Shown here: piece after piece, positions 723 through 63,153 of the stretch
How positions within the stretch are numbered: position 1 is the first letter of the stretch
Layout of the letters: each line of letters starts with the position of its first letter
Virus record (IMG/VR): IMGVR_UViG_3300037245_002163
Span: 37,301-101,300 of that record
Length of the DNA stretch: 64,000 bases
Direction: 5' to 3' (one strand)
Origin: a virus
Notes under the pieces: generated by a model
Told to the model about the DNA's origin: nothing
Seen by the model: only the letters and a program-made list of their open reading frames with translations
The model's database searches: none
Program-made: the position numbers and the translations under genes

Positions 723-1966
723 GGGTGCTCTACATCGAGTACGCGCTTTGGAAGCAGATCACGCAGACGCGGGGCTTCACCGCGTTCCATGAGGTCGTCA
801 CAACGGATACCTTGCGGGTGTGGTCGGGAATGCCCGAAGTGGTCTACGCCGCCGACGTGGAGCCCGCCAACTTCGCGGACTGGCAGGCCGCCTTCCCCAG
901 CTCGACCCTTGTGCTGGGCGAGGATACTGCGCTTGCGAATATCGCGGGCCTTGGCGCTACGCTGCAACCCCGAAGTGCGGATGGCACGCCGCAAACGGCG
1001 GGTCAAAATCTCACGCTGGGCCAGCTCGCTTTCACGCGAGCGGACGACGGCACTGAGCCCATGAACGTCAACGGCGAGGCTTCCGGCACTCCCGTGAACC
1101 TTTGGAACGGCACGGGTGGCGGTGATACCGGAGCTGACTGGCCCGCATCGGGCACCGGATCAGAGCAAGCCGCAGCGGACGCCGGGGCCGGCACAAACGG
1201 CTGGGATACCGGGGTCGCTGCGCAGAACGACGCTACCGATTTCGACAACGGCTCCCTAGTGGATGTGGATGCGCTCTACGGCGATTTGCAGTTTCAGATC
1301 AATCCGCAGGCGTGGCCCGCAACTTCACGGCTTCGGGTCGGGTTTCTCGATGCGTCGAACAATCTCGTGGGCAACTGGCGTCGGGCCGAAAACTACACGA
1401 CGAATATGGATCTCGGCATTTGGCAGCCCGTGTCGATTCCGATCGTGGACTTTGCGCTCACAGGGCAAGTGCAAAAGCTCCACTTTGAGTACCGGAGTAC
1501 CAGCGGGCAGCACCACTACTTCGACGATATCAAGCTCGTGCCATCGGGTGGGAACGGTCCCTACCGCTTTCGGGTGGCCGCGCCTAATGCGCTCACGCGC
1601 TACCACGTATCGATGATTGTGTTCATGGTGAGCGGCCCAACCGCGGGCTGGACTTCGACCAGCTTTGCGAACATTTCGGCGCTCTCGAAGGGGGTCATTT
1701 TGCGCCAGCGCCGGATCTCCGATGGGGCCGTGCTTTGGAGCTTCAACTCAAAGGATAATGTGGAGCTGTTCGGTCGCTACCATCCCCAAGACGATATTGA
1801 GTTCGCCGATGGCACTTTGCTTGTCGGGTTCATGGTCAAGCCCGGCAAGGCGAGCATCGTGGTGAGCGATGACGCGGTGTTGGAGTTCGTAGTGCGGGAT
1901 GACTTGAGCGCACTGGCCGCCGCCCGCGCATTCGCGCACTACGGGGTAGAGGTACTAGAGCCATGA
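719..1966 (+). CDS. putative virion protein with a beta-sandwich, carbohydrate-binding-like region
   Basis: 415 aa, ATGA-coupled; G/T/W-rich; WQPVSIPIVDF...YFDDIKL resembles CBM/galactose-binding-like domains. Confidence 0.45.
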   Translation: MRVLYIEYALWKQITQTRGFTAFHEVVTTDTLRVWSGMPEVVYAADVEPANFADWQAAFPSSTLVLGEDTALANIAGLGATLQPRSADGTPQTAGQNLTLGQLAFTRADDGTEPMNVNGEASGTPVNLWNGTGGGDTGADWPASGTGSEQAAADAGAGTNGWDTGVAAQNDATDFDNGSLVDVDALYGDLQFQINPQAWPATSRLRVGFLDASNNLVGNWRRAENYTTNMDLGIWQPVSIPIVDFALTGQVQKLHFEYRSTSGQHHYFDDIKLVPSGGNGPYRFRVAAPNALTRYHVSMIVFMVSGPTAGWTSTSFANISALSKGVILRQRRISDGAVLWSFNSKDNVELFGRYHPQDDIEFADGTLLVGFMVKPGKASIVVSDDAVLEFVVRDDLSALAAARAFAHYGVEVLEP

Positions 1967-2685
1967 GTATCAGCATGAAGCGGTCGCCCGTGACGAGCGA
2001 TGGTCGACCCATCTACCTCACGAGCCGATTTCGAGGCAACGTCGATCCGTTCTTCGCGGGCTCAGGGGATAATGAGAACGGGCGCGGGCAAGACGATCTG
2101 TTTTGCTTGCATTGGGCGACGGCGCCAACCGAGGCCGAAGACAAGACGCAAACCTTTGGGTTCTGCGACTGGATCTACATCGCCAAGGGCACGGTGCAGT
2201 GGTGCAACGCGGGGCCGGGGGATTACGTGAGCTTTCACGCGTTCGCGCCAGCGACCACGGTCACGCCGAACACGGATGCGGGCAACTGCAATCTCGTAGC
2301 CACGGGCTTGGGGTTCAACACCATTATCCCCGCAGCGGGCAACGGCTCACACGACTACGCCGACCCCGTTCCGGTCCCGGCCTTCAATGCAGCCGGCGAG
2401 CCCAACGGGCACTGGCTATGGAGCGAGCCCGACGCCGGCAAGGGCGACATGACGTTCAAGGGCGACGGCGCTCAAATGTATAACCTCTACGACGCTACGC
2501 TCCCGTTGGTCTATTGGATCAAAAAGCTCCCGTTGATCGGCAACCATAGTGCGTTGCTCCAACCCGAAACCAAGGCCCGTAAGGTGCTCCCCCATTGGAA
2601 GTTCAAAGTGACCGTCCACAACGAATCGCTAGGCGCGCTCCAAGCGACCTGGCATTTGGATTGCGCACGGAAGAGCACGTTATGA
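1963..2685 (+). CDS. hypothetical, probably virion-associated protein
   Basis: 240 aa, ATGA overlap with the upstream gene. Confidence 0.55.
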   Translation: MSISMKRSPVTSDGRPIYLTSRFRGNVDPFFAGSGDNENGRGQDDLFCLHWATAPTEAEDKTQTFGFCDWIYIAKGTVQWCNAGPGDYVSFHAFAPATTVTPNTDAGNCNLVATGLGFNTIIPAAGNGSHDYADPVPVPAFNAAGEPNGHWLWSEPDAGKGDMTFKGDGAQMYNLYDATLPLVYWIKKLPLIGNHSALLQPETKARKVLPHWKFKVTVHNESLGALQATWHLDCARKSTL

Positions 2686-2706
2686 GTAGCACGCAAAGGG
2701 GGGTTT

Positions 2707-61739: not shown

Positions 61740-61740
61740 C

Positions 61741-63153
61741 GTGCCAGTTTTCACTCCCAGAACCCGACCGGCAATCGAGCGCGATATGGTGGCTCGCGCA
61801 GTGGCCCGCTCCAACCTTACCGGGCTCACTCGCAACAGCGTGATCTACCATTTGATCGCGGCAGCGGCGTCGGAAGACGCGGAGCAATACTTCCAAATGA
61901 GCCGGCTTCGCGATCTCTTCGCGATCGACAAGGCCACCGGCTCCGACCTGGACGCTCGCGCAGCGGAGATCGTACCCGGCACGATCGTGCGACGGGAAGC
62001 CTTGAAGGCTTCGAATACAGTCGTCTTTGCACGCCCTGGCATCATTGGGACGACCGCCATCCCGACCGGCACCATCGTGGCAGCCACGGACGCTCAGGGA
62101 CAGATCAAGTATCAGACGACCGCAGCGGGCTCCATTCTCGCTGGCAGCACAGACTCCGTGCCGATCACCGTGGTCGCCATCGAAGCGGGCACACGGGGCA
62201 ACGTCGCTGCGGGAAGCATCAATCAGTTCGTAAGCCGCATCGCGGGTGTCACCACGGTTGCCAACGGCACGGCGCTTACCAACGGCGCCGACCGCGAAAG
62301 CGATGCAGCGTTCCGCGCGCGCATCCGTGCCTACGTCCAGGCGATCAGCCGCGCGACGCCTACGGCTATTGAGAGCTTCGCGAACAACGTGACCTTGGCC
62401 GATGGCCGGCGCGTGCTCTTCGCGAACCTGAAAGAGCCCATTATCCCAAACGGTACGGTCCAGCTCTACATCGACGACGGCACGGGCAGCGTTGACGAGT
62501 CTGACGACACGTTCATCGGCACACCCGAAGTCGTGATCGCGTCAGCCTTGCTAGGGGAAGTGCAAGCCTTTTCGGGGGAAAAGCCCATCCGTGACGACGG
62601 GAGCTTTGTGCTCGAAGTCGACACGGGCGGTGGTTACGTCGTTCAAGTGATCGATGTGGATTACAACTTCAATGCCGCGCAAGGCAAGATCGTGTTCACC
62701 GCAGTAAGCTACCCCACGGGGCTCGGCACGGGCGACGCCGTGCGCATGACCTACCGCTACTACACGGGGCTCATTCAAGAGACGCAAAAAGTCGTAGACG
62801 GCGACCCGCTAAATCCGCTTGTGTATCCGGGCGTGCGCGCCGGAGGCATTCAGGTCTACACCCTTCCGCCCACACTCGTGCCCCAAAGTGTAGTCGCGTC
62901 AGTCAGTGTGCTTGGGGGCTTCGATACCGTCACGGTTGCGGCCGAAGTCGACACCGTGGTTCAGGACTACATCAACAACTTGCCGATTGGGGCCGACGTG
63001 ATCGTGAGCGAGATCATCGAACGCGCGATGGGTGTGACCGGCATGTATAACTTTCGGTTCCAAATACTAACGGGCTCCACACCGCCCGCAGATCAAGTGA
63101 TTCTCGATGATCAGGTCGCGCGGATCACGGCCGCCAATATCACGCTCGTGTAG
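61741..63153 (+). CDS. baseplate J-like wedge protein
   Basis: ATGSDLD, AGTRGNV, GADRESDAAFRARI; GGAG RBS before GTG 61741. Confidence 0.9.
   Translation: MPVFTPRTRPAIERDMVARAVARSNLTGLTRNSVIYHLIAAAASEDAEQYFQMSRLRDLFAIDKATGSDLDARAAEIVPGTIVRREALKASNTVVFARPGIIGTTAIPTGTIVAATDAQGQIKYQTTAAGSILAGSTDSVPITVVAIEAGTRGNVAAGSINQFVSRIAGVTTVANGTALTNGADRESDAAFRARIRAYVQAISRATPTAIESFANNVTLADGRRVLFANLKEPIIPNGTVQLYIDDGTGSVDESDDTFIGTPEVVIASALLGEVQAFSGEKPIRDDGSFVLEVDTGGGYVVQVIDVDYNFNAAQGKIVFTAVSYPTGLGTGDAVRMTYRYYTGLIQETQKVVDGDPLNPLVYPGVRAGGIQVYTLPPTLVPQSVVASVSVLGGFDTVTVAAEVDTVVQDYINNLPIGADVIVSEIIERAMGVTGMYNFRFQILTGSTPPADQVILDDQVARITAANITLV

Follow-up and report, generated by a model that had tools for sequence, protein, structure and literature searches.

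The dispersed heptamer GGATAAT of a SPO1-capsid-like myovirus: a word under selection that may be read on phage DNA

What keeps an AT-rich heptamer, GGATAAT, in so many copies on both strands of a GC-rich phage genome, and what would read it there? The question is raised by the last 64 kb (bases 37301-101300) of the 101,300-bp IMG/VR record IMGVR_UViG_3300037245_002163, the stretch that was analysed and is called the window here, the phage itself being designated G000. In the original prediction, GGATAAT was proposed to be a selected, dispersed binding site. The reading favoured here, at a probability of roughly 0.4, is that GGATAAT is the recognition word for a putative, probably phage-encoded factor that reads duplex DNA and whose effect would depend on copy number and coverage of the genome. 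Coordinates below are window positions, while those marked "genome" refer to the whole 101.3-kb record.

Pattern search recovered all 30 copies listed in the original prediction with exact coordinates and strands, and the claimed ten-fold enrichment over two to three expected copies agrees with dinucleotide shuffling, in which 100 shuffles gave 2.87 +/- 1.51 copies and never more than eight. The accompanying details also hold: a purine stands before 28 of the 30 copies, 19 of the 30 fall within the first 20 kb, and five genes end in GGA-TAA inside the word (at 9565, 9798, 10513, 10719 and 49314). Two smaller figures had to be corrected, as GATAAT without the leading G occurs three times rather than twice (still under-represented against 9.5 expected) and the measured guanine-plus-cytosine content of the window is 61.2% rather than about 64%. 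Across the whole genome, GGATAAT reaches 39 copies and heads the list of over-represented 7-mers (order-2 Markov expectation 1.3, z = 28).

The recognised unit is longer than the heptamer and close to absolute in its letters. When 116 distinct sites from four genomes were aligned, the motif proved to span 13 asymmetric nucleotides (nt), C-A-R-R-GGATAAT-G-R (R, purine), with CA as the second commonest 3' extension; no further information was found at these 116 sites between -60 and +46, and no hairpin or other secondary-structure context surrounds them. Two genomes together hold 53 copies of the form GGATAATG, for an expectation of 0.8, and of the 15 other words of the type GGA-NN-ATG none is enriched. 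Nearly all single-base variants of the core lie at background and one-off variants are not systematically depleted; under a codon-preserving null in G000, only GGATATT shares a modest enrichment (2.8-fold), and GGATAAC was rejected as a second allowed form, not being enriched over the same null. A literature search on the bare word matched only primers.

The word itself is under selection in both orientations, as is evident from a codon null, clade-wide enrichment, orthologous conservation and synonymous-codon choice. The original prediction had named a codon-preserving null as the decisive comparison, and the enrichment persists under it: when synonymous codons were shuffled within genes, 16 deep-coding copies of GGATAAT stood against 5.3 expected and 14 copies of the 8-mer GGATAAT-G against 2.7, with none of 500 shuffles reaching either figure, and a second gene model gave 18 GGATAAT against 5.5. 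Counts over relatives, likewise proposed at the outset, place the word in the whole clade, with 41, 29, 18, 15 and 7 copies in five relatives and none of the reversed-word control. In the collinear relative G001 (~79% nucleotide identity), 19 of 28 alignable copies of G000 are fully kept, against 8.2 expected from a local, codon-phase-matched control (P = 1e-5); copies at gene boundaries are the best conserved (12 of 17 against 4.5 expected), and antisense-type copies are kept in eight of ten cases against 3.3 expected. The AT-rich codons that had been noticed inside genes in both orientations likewise reflect synonymous-codon selection. Asp-Asn is spelled with the rare pair GAT-AAT in 12 of 28 G_G contexts, which complete the 8-mer, against 7 of 107 elsewhere, and Ile-Ile with ATT-ATC in 12 of 19 C_C contexts, which complete it on the opposite strand, against 8 of 90 elsewhere; these counts include two G001 sites twice via a spurious antisense open reading frame (ORF), and G000 alone stays significant (P = 3e-4 for Asp-Asn and 3e-3 for Ile-Ile). 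Of the cheap synonymous opportunities that the genes of G000 offer, about half are used, across all modules. By clade-wide enrichment, positional conservation, synonymous-codon selection and sequence specificity, the proposal that GGATAAT is probably a selected, dispersed recognition site is therefore well supported.

Beyond this clade, the letters of the word change. GGATAAT is lacking in relatives with capsid proteins 69-75% identical, and the top word of one sister genome, G010 (L076-L078, IMGVR_UViG_3300033144_005399, 52,885 bp), is GGATACY (Y, pyrimidine), whose 74 copies in 53 kb compare with an expectation of 5.2. Over the codon-preserving null, both GGATACC and GGATACT are enriched about seven-fold, whereas GGATACG is depleted. 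The extended forms are CAAAGGATAATGG in the GGATAAT clade and CGGATACCG in G010, and GGATAC is the reverse complement of the BciVI/BfuI type IIS site GTATCC. GGATACY contains neither a stop codon nor ATG; it stands at 37 copies per strand in all six frames, falls at gene boundaries no more often than random positions do (28% against 26%), and its sites are not orthologous to the GGATAAT sites of G000. Its spacing is more even than random (coefficient of variation, CV, 0.73 against 0.98, P = 0.001; per strand, 0.76 with P = 0.07 and 1.07), and copies on opposite strands avoid each other at short range, cross-strand neighbours within 150 nt amounting to 4% against 20% expected (P = 0.001). Because the G010 word has different letters, is found on both strands without junction bias and occupies non-orthologous sites, the phenomenon at the family level is a GGATA-based word that differs by lineage and is favoured at high copy number, regardless of site or strand. 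Several enriched GGATA-based words are present in G008, while GGATA words are absent or only weak in G009 and in the complete genomes G163 and G164. An apparent avoidance of GGATA in G009 was not real against an order-2 model, and GGATATG of L037 was set aside, being without the shared flanks.

Other words were met in more remote genomes. The complete, 104-kb G163 (IMGVR_UViG_3300032397_000006) has weak strand-symmetric words, CCTTACTG (19 against 1.7 expected) and CGATAACT (16 against 1.7), the latter sharing GATAAC with the GGATAAY family. Two distant relatives with related zinc-ribbon primases, each examined over a ~21-kb locus, show TTCTGGA (L094, IMGVR_UViG_3300040801_002379; 69 copies against 5.5 expected, +34/-35) and TGCTGGA (L087, IMGVR_UViG_3300037851_000057; 24 against 3.1), words that share the core CTGGA(C).

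How such a word might act can be outlined as follows. The motif C-A-R-R-GGATAAT-G-R is kept by natural selection at ~40 copies per 100 kb on both strands, and a highly sequence-specific factor, most probably encoded by the phage, would read it as DNA in either orientation. The benefit would be set by copy number and genome coverage and not by the location of single copies; phage DNA, being ~40 times richer in the site than candidate-host DNA, could in this way recruit, load or mark something on itself. A nucleoid or packaging role, also named in the original prediction, may still apply. As an AT-rich, TAA-containing word may be cheapest to maintain between genes, it would double there as a stop codon and the region of the next start, giving rise to the junction pattern. 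Here we infer three things: a protein as the reader of the duplex, the phage genome as its source and such an effect of its binding. It may tentatively be added that the SPO1-capsid-like family as a whole uses private self-marking words, namely GGATA dialects (GGATAAT, GGATACY, TTGGATAG and others), with a putative duplex-DNA reader telling phage from host DNA, a wider picture that is possible rather than probable. Private words, with TTCTGGA and TGCTGGA of the distant relatives included, could even be a widespread layer of phage genome organisation.

The comparison with host DNA draws on metagenome-assembled genomes (MAGs) and Gemmatimonadota genomes as candidate hosts, which may not be the true host's group. 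Among genomes, terminase relatives came only from two short contigs, in MAGs of different phyla; these two MAGs contain 28-29 copies of the 8-mer in 4.1-4.5 Mb, no more than the reversed control, and none of 151 Gemmatimonadota genomes has more than 0.047 per kb, the phage having 0.28 (the set includes the unpublished G069 and G109, and the other 149 give the same result). A 7.3-kb contig in a Gemmatimonadota MAG (L115, G007:C82:1-7320), matching the G000 helicase gene at 68% nucleotide identity, carries seven GGATAAT against 0.33 expected, and a second phage contig of that MAG, L038, has a large terminase at 63%. Because both were binned in one MAG, there is a weak hint that the host may belong to the Gemmatimonadota.

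The original prediction had remarked that many copies sit at gene junctions. They do: a codon-score classifier assigns 57 of 80 sites in G000 and G001 to boundaries and 23 (29%) to gene interiors. The bias is, however, largely a placement effect of an AT-rich, TAA-containing word, because the sister word GGATACY, which contains no stop codon, has no junction bias. The arrangement in which a gene ends in GGA-TAA and the next opens with ATG, cATG or nnnnGTG is seen at 13 of the 80 sites, only 13-18 of which are start-adjacent, and for one of these junction starts, at the 10513 copy, G001 gives confirmation, with ATG in place of GTG at that position. About 57% of sites are in sense orientation (~39 sense-type against 29 antisense-type), internal sites being eight sense and 15 antisense. 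The 5' flanks are alike in both orientations, C-4, A-3, R-2 and R-1 being found in 19, 20, 25 and 29 of 29 sense junction copies and in 11, 9, 12 and 13 of 14 antisense junction copies; as antisense junction copies share the CARR flank, the flank is therefore part of the recognised word and not a Shine-Dalgarno sequence. The structural module (20-64 kb) holds 11 copies, including conserved ones in portal and tail genes. The copies of the window, with conservation in G001 where it was scored, are as follows (RHH, ribbon-helix-helix).

1753-1759, plus: inside gene 719-1966, sense, read as G|GAT|AAT (Asp-Asn); not conserved
2067-2073, plus: ORF 1963-2685, sense, in the Asp-Asn frame; conserved, flanks 23/23 identical
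2323-2329, minus: antisense within 1963-2685 (coding strand ATT ATC C); not conserved
4303-4309, plus: junction copy directly after the TAG stop of 3645-4301, in the first codons of 4295-4999
4999-5005, minus: antisense junction copy overlapping the TGA stop of 4295-4999 (cTGA-TTATCC); conserved
6076-6082, plus: intergenic, 35 nt upstream of GTG 6118
6417-6423, plus: 67 nt upstream of the RHH gene start at 6490; core conserved
9365-9371, minus: junction copy after the TAA stop of 9372-9566, its ATG being the next gene start
9565-9571, minus: junction copy GGA-TAA-TG, stop of 9566-9820 and start of 9372-9566
9798-9804, minus: junction copy, stop of 9799-10044, next gene start cATG; conserved
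10405-10411, minus: 5' part of 10143-10508, ATG in frame; conserved 23/23
10513-10519, minus: junction copy, stop of 10514-10717, next start 4 nt on (GTG; ATG in G001)
10719-10725, minus: junction copy, stop of 10720-11277, next gene start cATG
11238-11244, plus: antisense, 33 nt inside the 5' end of 10720-11277 (minus)
11720-11726, plus: antisense, first codons of early gene 11274-11753 (minus), at ~+25 from an early promoter
13375-13381, minus: intergenic, ~24 nt upstream of the -35 box of the early promoter with a leader from 13313 (minus); conserved
18113-18119, plus: antisense, inside the large terminase gene 17259-18848 (minus); conserved 23/23
19607-19613, minus: boundary copy whose ATG opens the 115-codon ORF 19261-19608 (minus); conserved
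19943-19949, plus: divergent intergenic copy, 91 nt upstream of ATG 20041 at the head of the structural genes; GGATAAC in G001
23637-23643, plus: internal, sense (Asp-Asn), in the gene for a 1928-residue protein
25967-25973, minus: internal, antisense, in the same 1928-residue gene; conserved
34793-34799, minus: internal, antisense, portal gene, Ile-Ile as ATT ATC; conserved 23/23
38769-38775, plus: boundary copy after the TAG stop of 36984-38759, its ATG opening the zinc-ribbon ORF 38774-38989; conserved
40182-40188, plus: internal, sense, in 39832-40767; not conserved
48433-48439, minus: antisense junction copy overlapping the TGA stop of 47816-48433; conserved
49314-49320, plus: junction copy GGA-TAA-TG between 48468-49319 and 49319-50140; conserved
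50458-50464, minus: internal, antisense, in 50137-50922; conserved
59142-59148, plus: internal, sense, in 58474-59427; not conserved
59923-59929, plus: intergenic, 1 nt past the TAA stop of 59430-59921 and 52 nt upstream of ATG 59982
62440-62446, minus: internal, antisense, in 61714-63153; conserved

The zinc-ribbon ORF at 38774-38989 (plus), whose start ATG lies inside a copy of the word, encodes 71 codons with two CxxC pairs between portal-associated and capsid assembly genes and is kept in all relatives examined (51-93% identity).

Several of the junction copies lie in the early operon, and the early promoters form a separate, host-type class of six to seven copies per genome, conserved in G001 and composed of TTGACr, an CCGTATACGG-like palindrome, TAcnnT and the leader TGAAGGGA(acgaag)accATG. 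The palindrome, placed between the -35 and -10 boxes, is a likely operator to which a dimeric regulator would bind. In the early operon that follows the promoter at 11787-11758, a GGATAAT copy stands at six junctions in a row. The promoters are located as follows.

11787-11735, ~13360-13295, ~14625-14560 and ~47850-47785, minus: early promoters in the window
genome 14960-15025 and 15895-15960, plus: early promoters in the remainder of the record

The top over-represented word of the non-coding upstream stretches in G000 and G001 is CCTAGG(T), with seven copies against 0.6 expected (for example at ~51215-51249 and 38990-39107), sometimes paired as a hairpin; besides the early-promoter parts and CCTAGG, no third, late-promoter-like word was found in these regions. 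The usual Shine-Dalgarno sequence of G000 is a G-run.

A number of these observations weigh against the favoured reading. The boundary share of GGATAAT, 69-73%, is ~1.8 times that of random positions under the same classifier (39-41%), boundary copies are 2:1 sense, and three of the six to seven early promoters have a copy within ~60 nt, such that a junction-linked regulatory role could still be at work in the GGATAAT clade. Spacing in this clade is not even (CV ~1.05). The argument for a reader of duplex DNA comes mainly from one genome, G010, and one short-range statistic, the avoidance of close opposite-strand neighbours, the test of pooled against rotated CV reaching only P = 0.05; the transfer from G010 to G000 further presumes that the two words are homologous, as their shared GGATA core suggests. 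The reader could also conceivably be encoded by the host, which is not established, and the comparison of gene content, in which the dialect-bearing contigs are incomplete, named no reader.

The gene content of G000 was nonetheless searched for one. The phage is an uncultured myovirus with genes for a large terminase, portal, SPO1-like major capsid protein (~32% identity to Herelleviridae) and tail sheath. Its replication arm comprises a DnaB-like helicase, a T7-gp4-like primase with zinc ribbon and TOPRIM domain (genome ~13704-14702, adjoining the helicase gene), PolA, RecA-like (PF00154, E = 4e-27), SbcCD-like, CobT/VWA and sigma-like proteins and a Dam-type methyltransferase, and the phage also encodes RHH (6490-6903), Cro-like helix-turn-helix (HTH) and HTH_Tnp_1 (46671-47069, minus) proteins. 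A Pfam scan of 98 proteins found no integrase and no recognisable immunity repressor or module, small HTH and RHH proteins being present. Restricted to the word-bearing clade are 49 genes, among them the genes of the Dam-type methyltransferase and of the RHH and HTH_Tnp_1 proteins. Two clade-linked orphans (genome 33406-34149, 247 residues, and 36716-37165, 149 residues) have weak homologues in the dialect-bearing G008 or G010; neither matched a Pfam or PHROGs family, and their single-sequence folds are poor, with a predicted local distance difference test score of 31 for the longer and 58 for the shorter. A ParB-like protein was rejected as the reader because its gene is absent from the word-bearing G001. 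The sigma-like, primase, helicase, PolA, RecA-like and SbcCD-like genes are all present in word-less genomes, which makes them uninformative or mildly negative for such a role.

Some of these proteins merit description in their own right. The sigma-like protein (467 residues; genome 18940-20343, L010:940-2343) resembles an extracytoplasmic function (ECF) sigma factor over its first ~150 residues, with a Pfam Sigma70_r2 score of 28 bits (cutoff 24) and a match to the ECF-superfamily model TIGR02937 at E = 2e-7, below cutoff; a Cys-containing segment, a proline-rich linker and a C-terminal domain without assigned function follow, and homologues of 31-33% identity occur in G009 and G164. The Dam-family N6-adenine methyltransferase (158 residues; genome 32513-32989, L010:14513-14986; PF05869, E = 8e-19, NPPY motif) is present in G000 and G001 and absent from the complete word-less relatives G163 and G164. 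A patatin-like phospholipase is encoded at 2707-3612 (plus; PF01734, E = 5e-32), and the proteome scan also matched a PTH2-type peptidyl-tRNA hydrolase (PF01981, E = 4e-6).

Two rivals deserve the most attention, namely template sites of the primase and sites of a junction-linked regulator. It was considered, as an unlikely yet serious alternative, that GGATAAT copies are recognition and start sites of the T7-gp4-like primase, both strands allowing lagging-strand priming anywhere; this would suit the equal strand counts, the position-independent placement and the lineage-specific dialects, and the phage does carry the gene. The zinc-ribbon strands differ between primases of word-bearing phages (RLRWNHxKDAW) and those of the GGATA-poor G009/L083/L084 type (RLRFNAxKRAG), a correspondence that tracks GGATA words in six genomes but is confounded with phylogeny, G163 having a similar ribbon and weak words. 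Position 6 of the G010 word is a pyrimidine (C and T both seven-fold enriched, G depleted) and would template a purine start, the distant relatives with related primases have TTCTGGA and TGCTGGA as words of their own, and the NrS-1 PrimPol offers a precedent for a long primase recognition site (PMC8718748). Against this stand the uneven spacing in G000 and G001, with per-strand gaps that reach 15-25 kb, the avoidance of close opposite-strand neighbours in G010, which is unexpected if strands are used independently, and the retention of the primase (44-48% identical) in the complete G163 and G164 without a strong word. TOPRIM primases are moreover known to read 3-5 nt rather than the 7-13 seen here, and GGATAAC lacks enrichment over the codon null in G000. 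More doubtful is the proposal, which the original prediction had included, of stoperator-like or operator sites, at which a phage regulator would bind 13-bp asymmetric sites, for example to shut off the early small-gene operon. Sites of this kind are known for monomeric two-domain repressors (PMC9283540), RHH, Cro-like HTH and HTH_Tnp_1 proteins are at hand, and the boundary share, the superior conservation of boundary copies, the six successive operon junctions and the copies abutting or near three early promoters (one of them conserved in G001) would all fit. Yet the direction of transcription is not followed by the copies (~57% of all sites are sense, and of the internal ones 8 are sense and 15 antisense), antisense boundary copies have the full consensus, codons are selected for antisense copies deep in structural genes, no integrase or immunity module was found among the 98 scanned proteins, the G010 dialect is without boundary bias, and the early promoters already hold a separate palindromic operator-like element; the option is accordingly disfavoured.

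The remaining explanations carry little weight. A -10-like element lacking a -35 box, used by host RNA polymerase with the phage sigma-like protein, is improbable even though G-ATAAT matches TATAAT at five of six positions (including -11A and -7T), the phage has a protein with a Sigma70_r2 domain, several starts have a copy 24-91 nt before them, among them the head of the structural operon (19943), and a distinct host-type early class exists; ~40% of copies are antisense or internal and nevertheless selected, the next start codon is 0-4 nt from the word at at least 13 sites, too close for a transcript, the sigma-like gene occurs in the word-less G009 and G164, and the G010 dialect is strand-symmetric and intragenic. 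No better odds can be given to a Chi-like signal for a RecBCD/AddAB-type helicase-nuclease of the host, serving end protection and recombination, which was likewise among the options first raised. Its "more the better" behaviour on both strands, written through codon choice, would be as observed, and Chi-rich phages exist (PMC12315714); these, however, are without recombination modules (PMC12315714), whereas G000 has RecA-like and SbcCD-like genes of its own, the candidate-host genomes (the two MAGs and the 151 Gemmatimonadota, the host not being established) show no enrichment, an AT-rich 8-mer would be costly for a host of ~60-65% GC, and cross-strand avoidance in G010 is unexpected for a strand-specific reader. 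That the word has no dedicated function and simply results from composition or from a mutational or repair bias of the lineage is very improbable: sites do turn over between lineages, but the enrichment is 30-fold with near-absolute specificity, orthologous conservation is far above phase-matched local controls, one-off variants are not systematically depleted, and sister lineages have two different exact words. Least probable is a translation cassette resembling the start-associated sequence (SAS), in which a purine-rich Shine-Dalgarno, UAA stop and AUG start couple adjacent genes. The exact GGA-TAA stop and next-start layout at 13 of 80 sites and the GTG-to-ATG switch in G001 speak for it, and the SAS of cluster K phages adjoins starts and can contain an upstream stop codon (PMC3203893). 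As a primary function it is largely refuted, a ribosome-binding site (RBS) being ruled out in that role by the specificity among GGA-NN-ATG words, of which the other 15 are not enriched, and by the flanks of antisense junction copies, which match those of sense copies; selection also extends to internal copies that are out of frame or antisense, the usual Shine-Dalgarno here is a G-run, and the G010 dialect contains neither stop nor ATG.

The reading of GGATAAT as the word of a phage-encoded, duplex-reading factor bears on how phage genomes are written. Restriction-site avoidance in phages is textbook knowledge, while strong positive selection for a private phage word has, to our knowledge, barely been described. 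Here the word leaves its mark on codon choice, on stop codons and on the junctions between genes, is kept across ~20% divergence and shifts its dialect between sister lineages; such selection implies a sequence-specific reader of important function, be it priming, marking or protection, organisation or regulation, that annotation has missed. Private words may also serve as sharp lineage markers for classifying metagenomic phages, and they caution that a junction-associated motif is not automatically an RBS or a promoter.

Among known systems, the iterated words of bacteria, namely the DNA uptake and uptake signal sequences (DUS/USS), Chi and the cyanobacterial HIP1, belong to host genomes and are read by the host's own machinery, HIP1 being palindromic. 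They share with the phage words a density of 0.4-1.4 per kb on both strands, spelling through codons, dialects around a core and the even spacing of G010, but GGATAAT is the private word of a phage lineage and shows no enrichment in those candidate-host genomes that were examined. The sites of T7 gp4 primase are GTC-based pentamers, and known TOPRIM primase sites need no enrichment. Primase sites, those of T7 gp4 and of NrS-1 PrimPol (PMC8718748), are similarly short asymmetric words on both strands whose specificity evolves with the enzyme; GGATAAT differs in its 7-nt core with flanks, its 15-25 kb per-strand gaps and the opposite-strand avoidance of its G010 counterpart. The stoperators of cluster A mycobacteriophages (L5 gp71-type) are 13-bp asymmetric sites too, lineage-specific and dispersed in more than 20 copies in short intergenic spaces and near promoters, but their orientation strictly follows transcription and they belong to temperate phages with an immunity repressor (PMC9283540), as opposed to the near-symmetric orientation of GGATAAT, its selected antisense and intragenic copies, the lack of an integrase or immunity module in the Pfam scan and a sister dialect free of junction bias. 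Closest in its letters is the cluster K SAS (GGGATAGGAGCCC), a 13-bp asymmetric repeat with the letters GGATA that adjoins starts, prefers ATG and sometimes includes the upstream stop (PMC3203893). The SAS is confined to one orientation just upstream of starts (3-7 bp) in the non-structural half of the genome (PMC3203893), whereas only 13-18 of 80 GGATAAT sites adjoin a start, a third are antisense (29 antisense-type sites), 23 (29%) are intragenic, and copies stand in all modules.

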